Shown here piece by piece: positions 2,369-55,774 of a DNA stretch of 64,000 nt. Position numbers and translations under genes: made by a program. Within the stretch, counting starts at the first letter, position 1. The number at the start of each line of letters is the position of its first letter. Source of the stretch: Candidatus Aenigmatarchaeota archaeon. GTDB lineage: Archaea; Aenigmatarchaeota; Aenigmatarchaeia; QMZP01; QMZT01. Location: positions 1-64,000 of the forward strand of contig JAPLVC010000002.1 in assembly GCA_026397315.1 (NCBI GenBank), given 5' to 3'. The notes under the pieces were generated by a model. It was not told the DNA's origin and did no database searches. It saw only the letters and a program-made list of their open reading frames with translations.

Positions 2369-5300
2369 TCATGGAGTTCGTTTTCTCATGTTTTTGTACA
2401 TCAATCCAACCAATACCAATGTTATGACGGAAACGATAACTGCCACGTAAGAGACGCTGTCAATCTGTTGTACGGTTATCATGCCGGTTGTTTTATCACC
2501 CGTGAATTGTTCAGTTTCCGTAGCTGATTGTGTGGCTGTCGTCTGCGTTTCATGTTTTATTGGGTTGCCGTTCATGGCCAACTGTATATCTGATGCATCA
2601 CTGTCTCCGGTCACTTCAAGTCTTCCTATGGTCTCGTGTCCATAGTTTATCCACACGTTCTCCGGGTCTATGTCTATCCTGCGCACGATTGTATAATTGC
2701 CTTCCGGCAGGTTTGGTCGCAGGTCGACGGTGAAGCTTATCTGTGTATCGACTTCGCCTATCGTCTGGGCAACCAAAGGGTTGCAGAACGGCGCTTCTGC
2801 GCTGTTCGTCTCTTTCGCCTGGTTGTAGCATGTCTCGTTGTTCTCGTCCATGAACCAGTAAAATATGCGTATCGGAAGGAACTGATAGTCTTCTTTCGTC
2901 GGCACGTCAATGACGTATTCTATCGTGAGATTAGATGTGTCATTGACCACGGAACTGGTCGTCTCTTCGGAAACGACGACCGATTCGTCGGTCTGTTTGA
3001 ACTGGTCCCAGATGTTGGAAGCGTACTCATAGGTCTGATTCCACAAGTCGTAGACATCGCAGTCTTTGTTTATGAGACAGTTGTAGATATCTTCTAGCCA
3101 GTTATGTTCTTCTATCGTTAGTGATTTTTCCACAGATAATGTTACGTTAACGGTTTTATCATTATCAGCAGTGAATATTACAGTTTTGTTGTAATAACTT
3201 TCCCTACTAAAAGTGCAACTCCACCATCCCGACGGGAACTCATACGGGCCGTAGGGGTTTGTCGTGTCACCGTCCTGGCCGAAACCGGTGTAGTTGCAGA
3301 CGATATTGACGTTGTCTAATGAGCTACCATCCTCGCCGCTCGTCACGTTGAACGTGATTTCATACGCATCAACTGTAAAATCTACACTCGTTGAATTTGA
3401 ATTGCCAACAGTGTCATTGCAGTAGAATATCGCCTCATAAACCCCATTGATCATAGAGGCATTATTGTAATTCCAATTACCAGATGAATTAGTGAGTGAG
3501 ATATTCCCGTAACCATAATCTAATAAACAACTATCAATATCTTCATTCGAGGTTAAATTGAACCAAATTGATAAATTATTGTAAGTGATATTCTGCGGTG
3601 AATCTATGATAACTAAAGGTGGCGTTGTATCAACAGTGAAATAAACTGTTGTGTAATTCATACCTGCAGTATTGTTAGCCCAAACAATTAAATTATTCTG
3701 ACCTTCTAAAGAAGTTATAGTTAAATTAGAAGTGTGGTCGATTGTTATGTTATCAATTTCAAGGATTCCACCTGTGTCTGAAGATATGTTGAAAGGAACA
3801 TTGCAATAGCCATTAAGATCTGGCGAGCATGTTGCAAGGTAATTGATAATTGCTGTGACATTCAAATCTATGGTCTCCGTTGAGTTGAATGAGGTTGTGT
3901 TAATATAATCTTTAATGTCGTCATTACCGGTATCTATAGTAATATTCTTAGGCCATAGCCATGTTAATTTTTCCTCGGCAAAACACCAAAAATCATCTGA
4001 ACTCAAAATGTATTTCATCTGAACCTTGTTGTCAGATAAGCATGAAAGTGGAATGTTTTCTTTTTCTGTATAATCATTTTCAGAGCTACAACCTTGACTT
4101 ACGCGATAAATATTGGATATTTGTTCCCAATTGTTTGTTGAATTCATGCAATATACAGAGATATTTCCGGAACTACTGCAACCTCCATATGTGCTACAAT
4201 CAGGATTCCATCTGAACGTTACATTAACTGCCGATACATTAGAGCCTTGGTTTGTGTAATTTACGTATAATGCCTTATTCGAAAGAGCCATTGAATGCGA
4301 AGTCCAAATCTCATCATATGCATATTCAGCTGCAACGGGGTCAGATATTCCGTCTGTGTAATTCCACGCTGCTTCAAGTTCTTCATCCATGTCATAGCCT
4401 CCAAAGCCTGTCATATTCCATTTAGCCTGGGAAATTTCTGACATTTTTGGAATTGAAATATAGACCAGCATTGAGCCACCAGAAAAATTACTATAAGTAA
4501 TATTTTCTGTTTTAGAAGAATCGTTAAGTTCATCTATTATCCCATCCAAGGTTACATTTGATTCATCGTTTAAGGAATATCCTGCCCAATCCAGCATTTC
4601 ACCCGCTGACCAATTTAAGTCAATATAAGAAATGTTGTAAGTTATGTTTTGTGGTGATACTACTGTTATTGAGGGAGGCATATTCCTTTTCTCATTTCCT
4701 ATCGACCATGACGGCGGGCTTGCGACGTAAATGCCGAGCATTATATCATCCCAAGCCATTTTAGTCCCGAACCATCCGGTTTCGAGCCTTACCCGCCCTA
4801 CCTGATTGCTCGCTTGCGAATTGACGAAGGAGAGCATTAACACGTCATCTTTATAAGAATATTCAGTAGTTCCCGTGAAGATGAGTTTATAGTTGTGCCA
4901 TGCATTATCAACTGTGCAACATGTAAAGCTTTCATTCTGGTTTGCGTTACCTCCGACTATCCTTCTGAATATATCCGTAGCGTCCGGAGTCCAGTCGGAG
5001 CCATCGTTATCGCTGAAGTCGTCAAAGAAGTGCCATGTGGTCAAGCCGTTCGATGCCGTTGAAACTCCTGAAGCGTTATAATAGACGAGGAAACTGGTCT
5101 GGTTCTCGGACGCGTTAATCCACACCTCGCACATGCTGGACGCGGCGGATGTATTGCACGTGCCTATGTAAAAATTCATCGGGCTTCCGGGGTCTGCGTT
5201 GCAGTCCGTTCCGTTGGTGTATCTCAAGTCAGCGCCGTTTGCCATTAAATCGGCGAACGGTATTGATGTGTTGTAAAACGACATATTGATTTCGGCGTGT

Positions 5301-6019
5301 ATAGGGAAATTGGCTGCTGTTATGTTCGTTATCTTTCTGCACTTTTTGAACGTGGTGTTCCACCACAGCCATTCGTTCAGCTCCAGGCCCTTTATCTTTG
5401 GAACCCAGTCTACGTTGTTTGTTCCGACCTTCGCGGACTTCTTTCCCACGAGCTTTATGGTATAGTCCTCCTCGGCTTCCAGCGTCTCGCCCCAGAAGGC
5501 GAACGGCTTGTAGTCTTCGCTGTATTTCGTTTCCTGATGCGAGCCTGTCTGGACGGTCTGCTCGACTTCGCATTCGTAGCTCGTGTTGGTTTTGGTTTCG
5601 TTGTCGAAATTATAGCAGGTCGTCTTGACATTGCTTGTTTCGTAATCAGGGACTTCTACTTGATATTCGGTCGTTTCGAGTATCTCGAAATGATACGAGA
5701 TGAGGCCGTCCATCCACGGCTTCTCCTTGACGAAGTTCCATGCGTATTCTGAGTCTGATTGTGCGGGAAGAACGATGTTTTGATAGGGATGAATTTTGAG
5801 GATTGCGTAGCATTCGGTGAAGCAGTGATCAGTATTCTCGATTAGCTGGACGTCTATCACGGGATTGCCGATATTTGTCTGGATTCTTATGGTGTCGCTA
5901 TCAAGGCTGATCTTTTCCAGCGACGCTTCCGCGCTTGTGCCCATGAAAAAGAGCGAGCACGACAAGAACAAAGAAACGAACACGACTAAAACTATCGAAT
6001 ACTTGGCTGAACTTTTCAT
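2369..6019 (-). CDS. Large membrane-anchored surface (glyco)protein with DUF2341-like and Ig-like modules
   Basis: Probable start MKSSAKY at 6019 followed by signal peptide; WWNTTFKKCRKI...GADLRYT...VYYNA (DUF2341-like); PPSITVVSPQNITY and VDTTPP Ig-like repeats; many NxS/T sites; C-terminal TM helix. Confidence 0.75.
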   Translation of the reverse strand: MKSSAKYSIVLVVFVSLFLSCSLFFMGTSAEASLEKISLDSDTIRIQTNIGNPVIDVQLIENTDHCFTECYAILKIHPYQNIVLPAQSDSEYAWNFVKEKPWMDGLISYHFEILETTEYQVEVPDYETSNVKTTCYNFDNETKTNTSYECEVEQTVQTGSHQETKYSEDYKPFAFWGETLEAEEDYTIKLVGKKSAKVGTNNVDWVPKIKGLELNEWLWWNTTFKKCRKITNITAANFPIHAEINMSFYNTSIPFADLMANGADLRYTNGTDCNADPGSPMNFYIGTCNTSAASSMCEVWINASENQTSFLVYYNASGVSTASNGLTTWHFFDDFSDNDGSDWTPDATDIFRRIVGGNANQNESFTCCTVDNAWHNYKLIFTGTTEYSYKDDVLMLSFVNSQASNQVGRVRLETGWFGTKMAWDDIMLGIYVASPPSWSIGNEKRNMPPSITVVSPQNITYNISYIDLNWSAGEMLDWAGYSLNDESNVTLDGIIDELNDSSKTENITYSNFSGGSMLVYISIPKMSEISQAKWNMTGFGGYDMDEELEAAWNYTDGISDPVAAEYAYDEIWTSHSMALSNKALYVNYTNQGSNVSAVNVTFRWNPDCSTYGGCSSSGNISVYCMNSTNNWEQISNIYRVSQGCSSENDYTEKENIPLSCLSDNKVQMKYILSSDDFWCFAEEKLTWLWPKNITIDTGNDDIKDYINTTSFNSTETIDLNVTAIINYLATCSPDLNGYCNVPFNISSDTGGILEIDNITIDHTSNLTITSLEGQNNLIVWANNTAGMNYTTVYFTVDTTPPLVIIDSPQNITYNNLSIWFNLTSNEDIDSCLLDYGYGNISLTNSSGNWNYNNASMINGVYEAIFYCNDTVGNSNSTSVDFTVDAYEITFNVTSGEDGSSLDNVNIVCNYTGFGQDGDTTNPYGPYEFPSGWWSCTFSRESYYNKTVIFTADNDKTVNVTLSVEKSLTIEEHNWLEDIYNCLINKDCDVYDLWNQTYEYASNIWDQFKQTDESVVVSEETTSSVVNDTSNLTIEYVIDVPTKEDYQFLPIRIFYWFMDENNETCYNQAKETNSAEAPFCNPLVAQTIGEVDTQISFTVDLRPNLPEGNYTIVRRIDIDPENVWINYGHETIGRLEVTGDSDASDIQLAMNGNPIKHETQTTATQSATETEQFTGDKTTGMITVQQIDSVSYVAVIVSVITLVLVGLMYKNMRKRTP

Positions 6020-6116
6020 GACTAGAGATTGGGAAAACGTTTTATCCCGCTTTGTTTTTAGGCACGCGAATTTGATACCAAAATGAATGTGTGGCCAAAA
6101 TATATTTTGCAGAATC

Positions 6117-6132
6117 GAAAAATATATAAATA
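6117..6132 (+). promoter_or_regulatory. Archaeal BRE-TATA promoter of the nrdR-nrdJ operon
   Basis: GAAAAA followed by TATATAAATA upstream of nrdR. Confidence 0.6.
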
Positions 6133-6140
6133 CCTCCCGA

Positions 6141-6187
6141 CCACAATATATTGGCGTTTTGGAAAAGCCGGGCACAATATGTTGTGT
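6141..6187 (+). promoter_or_regulatory. Tandem NrdR boxes (6141-6156 and 6172-6187)
   Basis: CCACAATATATTGGCG and GCACAATATGTTGTGT match the acaCwAtATaTwGtgt consensus; starts are 31 bp apart; directly upstream of nrdR-nrdJ. Confidence 0.85.
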
Positions 6188-6292
6188 TTTGCAAAGGTAG
6201 TGAAAACCGGCGAAAAAACGCAAATTTCGCTTAAAATTCGTCGAGACCCGGTGGTAAAAACCGGGCGAAAATGAGTCAGAAGAAGTGAAAAT

Positions 6293-6745
6293 ATGAAATG
6301 CCCATATTGCGCGAGCGAGGAAATGAAGGTCGTCGATAAAAGGGCGTCGGATGAAAAAGCGATCCGCAGGCGAAGGGAATGCCTGAAGTGTGCGAAGCGC
6401 TTCACCACTTACGAGCGCATCGAATCCGCGGACCTTATTGTCATGAAAAAAGACGGGCGAAGAGAGCGATTTGACAGGGACAAGGTGAGGAAGGGCATCG
6501 TCCGCTCTTTCGAGAAGCGGCCGATAACGAATGAGCAGATAGACAAGATGGTCGAGGAAATCGAGACGGAGCTGCGCGCGGGCGAGGAGATAGAGATACC
6601 GAGCAAGAAGATAGGCGAACTGGTCATGCGAAAGCTGAAGAAGGTCGACAAGGTCGCCTACATCCGCTTCGCATCGGTATACAGGGAGTTCGAGGACATC
6701 GAGAGCTTCCAGGAAGAGCTCAAGAAGCTCAGCGGCAAGAAGTGA
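6293..6745 (+). CDS. nrdR: Transcriptional repressor NrdR
   Basis: MKCPYC...IRRRRECLKCAKRFTTYE Zn ribbon, ATP cone, VAYIRFASVYREF. Confidence 0.97.
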   Translation: MKCPYCASEEMKVVDKRASDEKAIRRRRECLKCAKRFTTYERIESADLIVMKKDGRRERFDRDKVRKGIVRSFEKRPITNEQIDKMVEEIETELRAGEEIEIPSKKIGELVMRKLKKVDKVAYIRFASVYREFEDIESFQEELKKLSGKK

Positions 6746-6777
6746 CAGTTTCAGTCACGCATCTGAGGGGGGAAATC

Positions 6778-9159
6778 ATGGCGGTTACCAAGGTAAAGAA
6801 AAGGGACGCAAGGCTTGCGGATTTCGAGAAAGGCAAAATCGTGAATGCCATATTCAAGGCTGCCAAATCCGTCGGCGGCGAGAACATGGAGCTGGCGAAC
6901 AGCCTGGCCGACAAGGTCATCCAGCTGGTCGAGGAGAAATTCGCCAAAGAGGTTCCTACGGTCGAGCAGATACAGGACATCGTTGAGAAGGTGCTCATAG
7001 AGAACGGGCACGCTGCGACCGCGAAGGCTTATATTATCTACAGGAAGGAGCGCGAGGAGTCAAGGAAAGCGAAGGAGATGCTAGGCGTACGAGACGAGCT
7101 GAAGCTCACGCTAAACACGATAAAAGTCCTTAAAGCGCGCTACCTGCTGAAGGACGAGAACGGCAACGTCATCGAGTCGACCGGTGAAATGTTCAGGCGC
7201 GTCGCCAAACATCTCGCGCTGGTTGACATATTGTATCACGATCATGTTTTCGACAAGAACAAGGAGCAGACGGTCAAAGAGCTGGCGGAGCTGGACGGCT
7301 TGCCCAAAAAAGCGGCTGAACTGGGGCTGAACATAAACAACGTCAAGATGCTTCACAGGGCGTACCAGCGCCTGAACGTCAGGAAGCAGATGAAAGTCAG
7401 CTTTTCCGAGCTGGTCGAGATACTGAAGAACAAGCAGAACGAGATAATGGCGAAGGAGAACGAGTTCTACTCGCTTTTCACGGCATTCGAGTTCATGCCC
7501 AACTCGCCGACGCTCATGAATTCGGGCGCGCCCCTAGGCCAGCTGTCCGCATGCTTCGTCCTGCCCGTAGGCGACTCGCTGGACACGATATTCGACGCGC
7601 TCAAGTACACTGCAGTGATTCATCAAAGTGGCGGAGGGACTGGATTCTCGTTCTCGAAGCTCAGGCCCAACGGCGATGTAGTCAAGTCGACGAAAGGCAT
7701 CGCGTCCGGACCATTGTCGTTCATGCGCGTATTCGACGTCGCTACCGACGTCATCAAGCAGGGCGGCAAGCGCCGCGGGGCTAACATGGGCATAATGAGG
7801 ATCGACCATCCCGACATTCTCGACTTCATCACGTCTAAGGATAGCGAGAACCGCATCCTCACGAACTTCAACATCTCGGTCGGCGTGACGGACAAGTTCA
7901 TGAAGGCGCTCGAGAACGACGCGGAATACGACCTCTGCAACCCGAGGACAGGTGTCCCCTTCAAGCGCCTGTTCGCGCGCCAGGTCTGGGAGATGATAAC
8001 GTACCAGGCATGGAAGACCGGAGACCCGGGCGTGATATTCATAGACGAGGTAAACAAGTACAACCAAACGCCTCAGATAGGCACCATAGAGGCGACTAAT
8101 CCTTGTGGTGAACAACCATTGTTGCCATACGAGAGCTGCAACCTCGGCTCCATAAACCTTTCCAAGATGTTGAAGGAGACCAAAGGCGCTAGCGACGTGG
8201 ATTGGGACAAGCTGGCGAAAACGACGAAAGCGTCCGTCCAGTTCTTGGACAACGTCATAGATGCGAATTCGTATCCGATAAAGCAGATAGAGTTCATGAC
8301 GCACGCGAACAGGAAAATCGGGCTGGGCGTCATGGGATTCGCGGACATGCTGATAAAGATGGGCATACGCTACGATTCCGAAGAAGCGCTGAAGCTTGGC
8401 GAGAAGATCATGAAATTCGTCACCGACGCCGGCCACGAGATGTCAGTCGAGCTGGCTAGAAAGAGGGGCAACTTCCCCAATTTCCCCGGCAGCGTGTGGG
8501 ACAAGAAAGACAGCAAATACATGCGCAACGCGACTGTCACGACCATCGCGCCGACCGGAACGATAAGCATAATATCCGACTGCTCCAGCGGGATAGAGCC
8601 GTTATTCGCCGTTGCGTTCGTGAGGAAGAACGTCCTCAGCGGCGACGAGCTGGTCGACGTGAACAAGCTGTTCGAGAAATACGCGCGCGAAAAAGGCTTT
8701 TATTCGGACGACATCATGCGCGAGATTTCCATGTCCGGCTCAGTCGAACATATAGACGCAGTCCCCAAGGCGGCGAAAGAGCTTTTCAAGACGGCGCATG
8801 ACATCGAATACGAATGGCACATTCGCATGCAAGCGGCGTTCCAGAAATACACGGACAACGCGGTGAGCAAGACCATAAACATGCGCAACGACGCGGGCAT
8901 AAAGGACGTAGAGAATGCGTATAATCTGGCCTACAAACTGAAGTGCAAAGGCGTGACCATATACCGCGATATGAGCAAGGCCGTGCAGGTCATACACATC
9001 GGCGATGACAAGAGGAAGAAAGCGAAGCTGGTGAAGGGTGACGAAGAAAAGAAAGAGATGAACGAGTCGGAAGAGATGTGCCCCGTGTGCAAGTCGAAGC
9101 TCTTCTCAGCCGAGGGATGCTACACCTGCCTGAGCTGCGGCTATTCCAAGTGCGGCTAG
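6778..9159 (+). CDS. nrdJ: Adenosylcobalamin-dependent (class II) ribonucleotide reductase with N-terminal ATP cone and C-terminal Zn ribbon
   Basis: PNSPTLMN, LSACFV, GGGTG, RRGANM, TNPCGEQPL, ESCNLGS, TIAPTGT, C-terminal CPVC...CLSCGYSKC; GAGGGGG SD before ATG 6778. Confidence 0.95.
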   Translation: MAVTKVKKRDARLADFEKGKIVNAIFKAAKSVGGENMELANSLADKVIQLVEEKFAKEVPTVEQIQDIVEKVLIENGHAATAKAYIIYRKEREESRKAKEMLGVRDELKLTLNTIKVLKARYLLKDENGNVIESTGEMFRRVAKHLALVDILYHDHVFDKNKEQTVKELAELDGLPKKAAELGLNINNVKMLHRAYQRLNVRKQMKVSFSELVEILKNKQNEIMAKENEFYSLFTAFEFMPNSPTLMNSGAPLGQLSACFVLPVGDSLDTIFDALKYTAVIHQSGGGTGFSFSKLRPNGDVVKSTKGIASGPLSFMRVFDVATDVIKQGGKRRGANMGIMRIDHPDILDFITSKDSENRILTNFNISVGVTDKFMKALENDAEYDLCNPRTGVPFKRLFARQVWEMITYQAWKTGDPGVIFIDEVNKYNQTPQIGTIEATNPCGEQPLLPYESCNLGSINLSKMLKETKGASDVDWDKLAKTTKASVQFLDNVIDANSYPIKQIEFMTHANRKIGLGVMGFADMLIKMGIRYDSEEALKLGEKIMKFVTDAGHEMSVELARKRGNFPNFPGSVWDKKDSKYMRNATVTTIAPTGTISIISDCSSGIEPLFAVAFVRKNVLSGDELVDVNKLFEKYAREKGFYSDDIMREISMSGSVEHIDAVPKAAKELFKTAHDIEYEWHIRMQAAFQKYTDNAVSKTINMRNDAGIKDVENAYNLAYKLKCKGVTIYRDMSKAVQVIHIGDDKRKKAKLVKGDEEKKEMNESEEMCPVCKSKLFSAEGCYTCLSCGYSKCG

Positions 9160-9226
9160 AGCTAGCGATGCGCATATAATATCTGTATATATAATAGGCA
9201 CAGGAGTCGATGGTTGGGGTGATGGT

Positions 9227-54276: not shown

Positions 54277-54549
54277 TTATCTGAGCTCTTTTCTGAAGCT
54301 CCCGAATTCCTTCGAGATTCTTTTTTCTTCTCTGTTCAATTCGCTCAGAACCCTGTCGCGGATATCCGAAGCCCTTATCTCGTCCCTGCTCTTGAAATGT
54401 TCCTCGACGTTCCTCGCTATCCTGTCAGCAATGTCCCTCGACCTGCTGCTGTCGAGCTTGACTCTTTTCGCGGCATTTTCTACGCTTCTCCTGATCTTGT
54501 CGCGGCTGAAGTCCTCTTTTCTATTGTCTCTTTTTATCACGACTGTCAT
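54277..54549 (-). CDS. Stand-alone ATP-cone protein
   Basis: MTVVIKRDNRKEDFSRDKIRRSV...IRD.VL.EL. Confidence 0.85.
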   Translation of the reverse strand: MTVVIKRDNRKEDFSRDKIRRSVENAAKRVKLDSSRSRDIADRIARNVEEHFKSRDEIRASDIRDRVLSELNREEKRISKEFGSFRKELR

Positions 54550-55651: not shown

Positions 55652-55774
55652 TGCGCCGACCGGGATTTGAACCCGGGTTAGAGGCTTTTTCCATCAGTGG
55701 TTGCCGGATGCATCGAAACCCGCTGGGGTTTTGATTTGGGAAGCCCCTGTCCTACCAGGCTAGACTATCGGCGC
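55652..55774 (-). tRNA. tRNA-Gly(CCC) with 50-nt canonical 37/38 intron (55687-55736)
   Basis: Acceptor GCGCCGA/TCGGCGC-A; GGGGC TT CCC A^A GCCTC; BHB helix TTCC/GGAA. Confidence 0.94.

Follow-up and report, generated by a model that had tools for sequence, protein, structure and literature searches.

To our knowledge, the repressor NrdR has been studied almost only in bacteria. Most archaeal regulators are of bacterial type and act by promoter occlusion. The closest known system to the locus reported here is the nrdRJ operon of Streptomyces coelicolor (PDB 7P37, 7P3F, 7P3Q; PMC9110341), in which nrdR precedes nrdJ, the gene of a class II ribonucleotide reductase (RNR), and two partly palindromic boxes of 16 bp lie about three helical turns apart in the operon promoter. 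In the cycle described for bacterial NrdR, oligomers with only ATP bound are off the DNA, and the dATP/ATP tetramer binds and kinks both boxes (PMC9110341). The NrdR box is defined as 16 bp with highly conserved C4, A6, A8, T9, T11 and G13, and the canonical spacer between two boxes is 15-16 bp (PMC13584703); spacers of 14-17 bp, or of 24-27 bp, are tolerated (PMC12051234). Escherichia coli NrdR (PDB 9FZF, 9FVR, 9FXK; PMC12176259, PMC13584703) uses the same box consensus with a spacer of 15-16 bp and serves three operons (nrdAB, nrdHIEF, nrdDG). At nrdAB the functional pair is located 3' of a non-functional box 0, which covers the -10 region and the start (PMC13584703), so that there is a bacterial precedent for an operator at or after the start.

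Among archaeal regulators, similar operator positions are known for Pyrococcus furiosus LrpA and Archaeoglobus fulgidus MDR1, which bind just 3' of the TATA box and over the start, occupy the promoter together with TBP/TFB, and block the recruitment of RNA polymerase (RNAP); LrpA is also self-regulating (PMC2995911). NrdR has been reported in 22% of archaeal genomes (PMC13584703), with a few archaeal RNRs under NrdR control (PMC12051234). The large surveys of NrdR boxes were carried out on bacterial genomes only (PMC13584703, methods), and according to a recent preprint (10.1101/2025.03.28.645925) an NrdR orthologue is absent from archaea. In the literature we found neither a description of an archaeal NrdR operator nor a paper combining NrdR with DPANN. 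This is in agreement with a preceding sequence-only reading of the DNA analyzed here, which knew of no characterised archaeal operator.

The window, meaning the whole stretch of 64,000 nucleotides under analysis, belongs to a reduced DPANN metagenome-assembled genome (MAG) of the Aenigmatarchaeota with seven contigs and 1,049,876 bp (91% complete). DNA of the window is contained in freshwater-sediment metagenomes, and among the runs listed for positions 5800-7300 none was of RNA. Genomes of the same genus have entries as Candidatus Aenigmatarchaeota MAGs. The host genome encodes two genes for TBP (contigs C4 and C6) and one for TFB, and no Sigma70_r2 match was found in it at 91% completeness. 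For these reasons we regard the host as a DPANN archaeon with archaeal basal transcription, and the archaeal promoter context (TBP/TFB/RNAP) claimed from the letters alone is borne out by its gene content.

The intergenic region 6020-6292 separates the divergent gene of a giant surface protein (2369-6019, minus strand) from nrdR (6293-6745, plus strand), which codes for 150 aa with a Zn-ribbon and an ATP-cone (Pfam PF22811, PF03477). The nrdJ gene (6778-9159, plus strand) starts 32 nt past nrdR and encodes a class II, B12-dependent RNR with an N-terminal ATP-cone (Pfam; TIGR02504, 733 bits). Both genes are probably co-transcribed. The order is the same as in S. coelicolor, and with nrdR as first gene of an operon with nrdJ the repressor would regulate itself here as it does there. 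The genes after nrdJ are, in order, those of a corrinoid adenosyltransferase, a dCTP deaminase, a membrane protein and a DUF4430 protein. As the only Ribonuc_red_lgC locus, nrdJ is the sole RNR detected in the host genome, and NrdD was not found (genome 91% complete for both statements). In the gap of 67 nt between nrdJ and cobO (9160-9226) we also observed TATATATAAT about 40 nt 5' of the cobO ATG, together with GGTGATGG, a site resembling a ribosome-binding site. Judged from these motifs the gap may be an internal promoter, and cobO, dcd and the later genes would then perhaps be outside NrdR control.

By its sequence the NrdR protein of the window is canonical. It obtains 194.6 bits with TIGR00244 (equivalog cut-off 124.65), covering 1-146 of 147 model positions (TIGR00244 / COG1327), and both Pfam domains, Zn_ribbon_NrdR and ATP-cone, match. 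The best structural match is E. coli NrdR 9FZF (E = 4e-43, residues 1-149), and S. coelicolor NrdR 7P37 is matched with E = 9e-30. Two CxxC motifs (C3/C6 and C30/C33) are present in the Zn-ribbon. In S. coelicolor NrdR the DNA is contacted by D15, R17, the RRRR motif and R37, and the inner (ATP) and outer (ATP/dATP) nucleotide sites involve V48, K50, R51, E56, F58, K62, F124, V127 and Y128 (PMC9110341). Aligned to 7P37, the window protein keeps D15, R17, RRRR at 25-28 and R36 for DNA contact, and V50, K52, E58, F60, K64, F126, V129 and Y130 in the nucleotide sites. Conservative Arg/Lys swaps occur at K12, K53 and R71, of which K12 and R71 are as in E. coli NrdR; with regard to the S. coelicolor list the swaps are R12 to K12 and R51 to K53. 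The archaeal protein is therefore like its S. coelicolor counterpart in combining a Zn-ribbon and an ATP-cone and in sharing the residues of DNA specificity (D15, R17, RRRR) and of the nucleotide sites. The presence of an intact NrdR-type repressor downstream of the boxes, as had been proposed, is thereby supported both by the score above cut-off and by the kept residues.

Box 1 (CCACAATATATTGGCG) is located at 6141-6156 and box 2 (GCACAATATGTTGTGT) at 6172-6187, both on the plus strand, with a spacer of 15 bp (6157-6171) between them. The two 16-bp boxes with starts 31 bp apart that the sequence-only reading had described were found exactly at its coordinates, and each of them carries all six of the key positions C4, A6, A8, T9, T11 and G13. 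The spacer is inside the published tolerated range, and so are the spacers of 15-17 bp in the 29 related loci considered below. As in S. coelicolor and E. coli, the pair belongs to a promoter region, 105-152 nt 5' of nrdR-nrdJ, and NrdR is encoded in the same genome.

The core common to both boxes, CACAATATRTTG, occurs genome-wide (1,049,876 bp) only in these two copies. The pattern of six positions has 158 sites in the genome, and box 1 and box 2 are the sole pair with starts 30-33 bp apart; from 158 sites we calculate that approximately 0.1 pairs at 30-33 bp would be expected by chance. The weighted pair score is 38 at the operator compared to 31 at the next best locus over about 1.05 million positions. 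Box 1 and box 2 are also the two top matches to the consensus in the genome. Compared with ACACWATATWTWGTGT, box 2 has two mismatches, a value reached at no other site and making it the best consensus match of the genome, and box 1 has four, all in its outer flanks. Because the core is unique, the pair is the only one that is correctly spaced and its score of 38 stands against 31, a chance origin of the box pair is excluded.

No second box pair, and with it no second operator or wider NrdR regulon, was found in the 1.05-Mb genome. A wider regulon was also considered on the basis of single boxes and rejected, as the best other single sites are in coding-looking DNA and are without a partner box. 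The host thus differs from E. coli, where three operons are served, in having one operator found in its genome, and it further differs in domain and basal machinery. The host very probably switches off its only RNR operon by means of this bacterial-type repressor.

The type of promoter and the register of the boxes relative to it make up the difference from S. coelicolor, where the operator is part of a sigma-70 promoter; the window operator, which is predicted from sequence, is associated with a predicted archaeal BRE/TATA promoter for TBP, TFB and archaeal RNAP. The TATA box TATATAAATA is at 6123-6132 (plus strand), and its 8-mer 6123-6130 is aligned to the relatives' TTTATATA. It is adjoined by a purine-rich, BRE-like element, CGAAAAA, at 6116-6122 (plus strand), which aligns with aGAAAAG of the relatives and is similar to the regions 5' of TATA in leaderless genes of the host. 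Many host genes look leaderless, and this was used for a calibration of the distance from TATA to start. Among about 935 crude gene calls of the host genome, 31 leaderless genes possess TTTAWAWA at -30 to -27, and the first T of this motif peaks 27 and 29 nt 5' of the ATG.

Adding 27-29 nt to the first base of the TATA 8-mer (6123), and taking the possible TATA registers together, gives a predicted transcription start at 6150-6154 (plus strand). With the aligned 8-mer (6123-6130) the start would be at 6150-6152, that is at box 1 positions 10-12, and with other TATA registers at 6152-6154. The best guess is A6150, preceded by T6149. Relative to this predicted start, box 1 extends from approximately -9 to +7 and box 2 from approximately +23 to +38, and the gap between TATA and box 1 is 8-10 bp. 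The earlier claim that a BRE-TATA lies just 5' of box 1, and that box 1 covers the expected start, agrees with the calibration by leaderless genes, which puts the predicted start inside box 1. A sigma-70-type promoter was also tried and rejected; the scanned promoter region had no more matches than shuffled sequence, and its one weak match (9/12, 6072-6101) is 5' of the boxes. In the leader, TATA-like TTAAAATT at 6230-6238 might provide the genus with an additional, unregulated promoter.

A search for paired boxes upstream of nrdR in other archaea, which had been suggested as a check, was run, and such pairs were found. A lack of conserved pairs in archaeal orthologues, which would have spoken against the sequence-only reading, was not observed. 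They are present in 29 of 30 related nrdR loci (pair score 33-41, starts 31-33 bp apart) and follow a TTTAWAWA box in 29 of 30; the loci are kin, and the counts over 29-30 loci are not independent. NrdR identity over the related loci ranges from about 40% to 94%, and an RNR gene comes after nrdR in all 30. The exception without a pair (L029) is a fused gene located 41 nt past a preceding ORF. Among the 29 related loci with a pair, box 2 retains the six key positions in 28-29 and box 1 in 23-29. The spacer has a length of 15, 16 or 17 bp in 14, 10 and 5 of these 29 loci, its sequence holds almost no information across them, and the flanks drift too. A TTTAWAWA-type box is located 14-20 nt 5' of box 1 in 25 of the 29, and the predicted start coincides with box 1 positions 4-16 in 27; in the two remaining loci it is at box 1 or slightly 5' of it. 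The arrangement is family-wide and sharply defined: a BRE/TATA is followed after 10 nt by box 1, which covers the predicted start, and box 2 comes after a spacer of 15-17 bp. In other DPANN phyla, box pairs were also detected at Woese-, Pace-, Nano- and Micrarchaeota loci, 0-26 nt 3' of a TTTAAATA-type box.

NrdR matches were obtained in 34 of 41 close relatives (E <= 0.001), 7 of these being weak and partial, and at E <= 1e-25 in 92 of the 201 genomes that were sampled from the phylum. In two genomes of the same order, G025 (84% complete) and G028 (91% complete), nrdR was not found. Before their RNR genes there is no box pair, and the best scores of 24-26 are at background level; the co-occurrence test consists of these two genomes. 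The genomes of family f1 without an nrdR match are uninformative in this respect because their nrdJ locus is either absent or cut at a contig end. We further report that the nrdJ genes of G025 (C24) and G028 (C7) have open frames of 1474 and 1115 aa in which the RNR match comes in pieces (L114-L122). By this pattern they probably contain inteins. In G028, two nrdJ-like genes are arranged in tandem.

Of the bacterial NrdRs at the loci that were fetched, the closest have 54-66% identity to the window protein. In a quick tree of 148 alignment columns, with weak support values of 81-92 and a sample biased to the best matches of the query, the DPANN sequences (Aenigmat-, Woese-, Pace-, Nano- and Micrarchaeota) form one side along with four sequences that carry a bacterial label, namely three Patescibacteria and one unclassified (L038, L040, L045, L099). 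The other 39 bacterial sequences are on the opposite side. From the sequences a horizontal transfer of nrdR is likely; because of the 148 columns and the weak support we claim neither a direction nor a number of transfers. The Patescibacteria loci that were fetched have the bacterial layout TTGACA, box 1, TATAAT, box 2. Their box 1 is thus between TTGACA and TATAAT, in contrast to the archaeal family with box 1 over the predicted start and box 2 in the leader.

Such a transfer, with the bacterial identities of 54-66% and a few Patescibacteria clustering with DPANN, could be taken as an argument that the boxes are inert relics carried in with a bacterial nrdR or are bound by another archaeal factor, and the TATA-like box core AATATATT could likewise suggest that the AT-rich cores are themselves TATA boxes. 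We consider this very improbable. Relics would not stay nearly invariant across families while their spacers diverge, nor would they be expected in a fixed register to an archaeal TATA box, which bacterial DNA would not supply. Moreover, the genomes in which nrdR was not found did not yield boxes either, a canonical BRE/TATA is already present 5' of the pair, and NrdR is matched exactly in spacing and at C4/G13. The locus shows, in a clear natural example, a bacterial repressor that has likely spread horizontally and has been brought into a new register with the TBP/TFB/RNAP machinery. The site is genuine and conserved; it adds a further instance of a known switch and in principle comes as no surprise.

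A related arrangement exists in the sister family f5, where one protein of 853-858 aa comprises Zn_ribbon_NrdR, two ATP-cones and class III NRDD (Pfam). Examples of NrdR-NrdD fusions are L144:317-2875 and L145:216-2789, both on the minus strand, as well as L019, L124, L125 and L134. The f5 fusions are mostly located behind a box pair, with box consensus and spacing as in the window and with the boxes 3' of TATA. They differ in that the window NrdR is free-standing, has a class II NrdJ as target, and has exactly two boxes. As a side observation, fusions of NrdR-NrdD type also occur in some families of the phylum besides f5, with frames of 832-894 aa in at least ten genomes; the box pair 3' of TATA is present at L019, L124, L125 and L134 and was not found in L029.

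With regard to function, we consider it highly likely that the two boxes form a functional NrdR operator on an archaeal BRE/TATA promoter and mediate dATP/ATP-dependent autorepression, most likely through a block of RNAP recruitment or promoter opening. The autoregulated repression proposed by the sequence-only reading is thereby supported, and its checkable parts all hold. TBP and TFB would bind at 6116-6132 and transcription of nrdR-nrdJ would begin at about 6150, inside box 1. If dATP accumulates, NrdR with ATP in the inner and dATP in the outer site would form a tetramer, whose two Zn-ribbon pairs may grip box 1 and box 2 at a distance of three helical turns. The DNA would be sharply kinked at the central AT of each box. 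As box 1 extends from about -9 to +7 and box 2 from about +23 to +38, the complex would cover the start and the initially transcribed DNA, where RNAP must load and melt the promoter. TBP/TFB might still be on TATA while recruitment of RNAP or promoter opening is prevented, and the only RNR of the cell and its own repressor would be shut off. Upon a fall of dATP, oligomers with ATP only would release the DNA. By analogy, the site most likely works like the operators of LrpA and MDR1, and recruitment of RNAP or promoter opening is the step most likely blocked. The proteins themselves are different: LrpA and MDR1 are an Lrp-type HTH protein and a DtxR-type protein, unrelated to the Zn-ribbon and ATP-cone family and with other effectors, and NrdR acts as a tetramer on two separated boxes with a strong DNA bend.

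The preference for a block of RNAP recruitment over an exclusion of TBP is purely geometric, coming from the putative operator with box 1 beginning 8-10 bp past TATA. The same short distance could also be read the other way, namely that NrdR represses by excluding or destabilising TBP/TFB through steric overlap or the sharp bend. In several loci the gap is 0-10 bp, in family f13 the TATA box overlaps the left half of box 1, and the kink by NrdR is about 90 degrees at each box (PMC9110341). It must be considered that in most loci TATA and BRE are wholly outside the boxes, and that the distance varies from 14 to 32 nt, which fits a need to cover the start region and not TATA. LrpA and MDR1 show in addition that TBP/TFB can co-occupy a promoter with a repressor bordering TATA (PMC2995911). 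We therefore regard an exclusion of TBP/TFB as unlikely, with some weight left to it by the mere 8-10 bp from TATA to box 1 and by the strong DNA bend of NrdR.

The position of box 2 gives rise to a further alternative, in which NrdR would act mainly after initiation, either with box 2 (approximately +23 to +38) as a roadblock or with the box 2 palindrome and a T-run as an attenuator or pause site. Conservation is higher in box 2 than in box 1, TTT(T) comes after box 2 in most loci, and at E. coli nrdAB the functional boxes are likewise 3' of box 0 with its -10 region and start (PMC13584703). In folding, the predicted leader surpasses each of 200 shuffles (z = -3.1); this value is expected since any palindrome folds as RNA. 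The T-runs are short (3-5 nt), and conservation also extends to box 1 over the predicted start. We consider an action after initiation improbable. At the gathering threshold of Rfam, the only matches in the window were its tRNAs, and there was none in the nrdR leader.

With the preferred block of RNAP recruitment or opening, the operator would control the sole RNR of a reduced DPANN genome and could serve as a simple template for studying in vitro the effect of a DNA-kinking tetramer on archaeal initiation. A further implication is that NrdR-box searches should include the approximately one-fifth of archaeal genomes reported to have NrdR.

Two further elements accompany the promoter. The first is an upstream element, AAAATATATTTT-GCAG, at 6097-6112 (plus strand), about 14 nt 5' of BRE/TATA. 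It is an AT palindrome (6097-6108) resembling the box core, and without the C4 and G13 that NrdR binding requires; a repeat search lists it with the two boxes as a third repeat copy. The centres of the palindrome and of box 1 are separated by 46 bp. In family f1 its distance from BRE/TATA is fixed, irrespective of the direction in which the upstream gene is read. Upstream of both RNR genes of G028 (L120, L122), where nrdR was not found, there are similar elements, TATATTGCAGAATAGAA and TATATTTTACAAAATA, and one of these genes appears leaderless. In 23 family genomes ATATATTTTNCAGNAT is approximately 3-fold enriched over the reversed control. The palindrome as a motif of a wider regulon was rejected because the non-nrdR matches that were fetched are in coding DNA and have no TATA.

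The second element is the leader motif GTAGTGAAAA at 6197-6206 (plus strand), 9-10 nt past box 2 and conserved at that distance in family f1. Exact matches to GGTAGTGAAAA were in nrdR leaders in 6 of 18 cases, with no overall enrichment over the control in the 23 family genomes. Two more copies of the leader motif were observed in the host genome 6-8 nt 5' of a BRE/TATA (C3:194884, minus strand; C6:39566, plus strand). In family f6, a hairpin or palindrome GTCAC-N6-GTGAC is found at the position of the leader motif. The leader of the window is unusually long, with 105 nt from box 2 to the ATG compared to 28-52 nt in most of the family. This is due to a direct repeat of 22 nt (D2; 6196-6217 and 6250-6271), in the second unit of which the copy of GTAGTGAAAA has diverged.

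Both elements could be accommodated if the promoter had two layers, a doubtful reading which we give tentatively from the motifs. The older layer would be an RNR module that is independent of NrdR, with the palindrome AAAATATATTTT and GCAG 5' of the BRE as an element specific to RNR promoters, and the second layer would be a horizontally acquired NrdR operator between TATA and the start codon. By this insertion the gene would now have a leader and repress itself. The palindrome and GTAGTGAAAA might then be sites for a second archaeal regulator of dNTP supply, or alternatively extra contacts of higher NrdR oligomers.

We finally report several minor observations. A uORF of five codons (6271-6288; ATG AGT CAG AAG AAG TGA) ends 4 nt 5' of the nrdR ATG; the closest relative (L004) has a comparable uORF, and more distant relatives have none. 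Three stand-alone ATP-cone ORFs of about 90 aa each, with neither a Zn-ribbon nor an RNR body, occur in addition to the cones of NrdR and NrdJ (window 54277-54548, minus strand; G000:C6:16378-16602; G000:C4:33241-33486). No NrdR boxes were seen ahead of the one in the window (54277-54548, minus strand). A tRNA match of 123 nt at 55652-55774 (minus strand; 49.7 bits, Rfam), which ARAGORN in default mode did not report, is far longer than a plain tRNA and by this length is probably an intron-containing archaeal tRNA.
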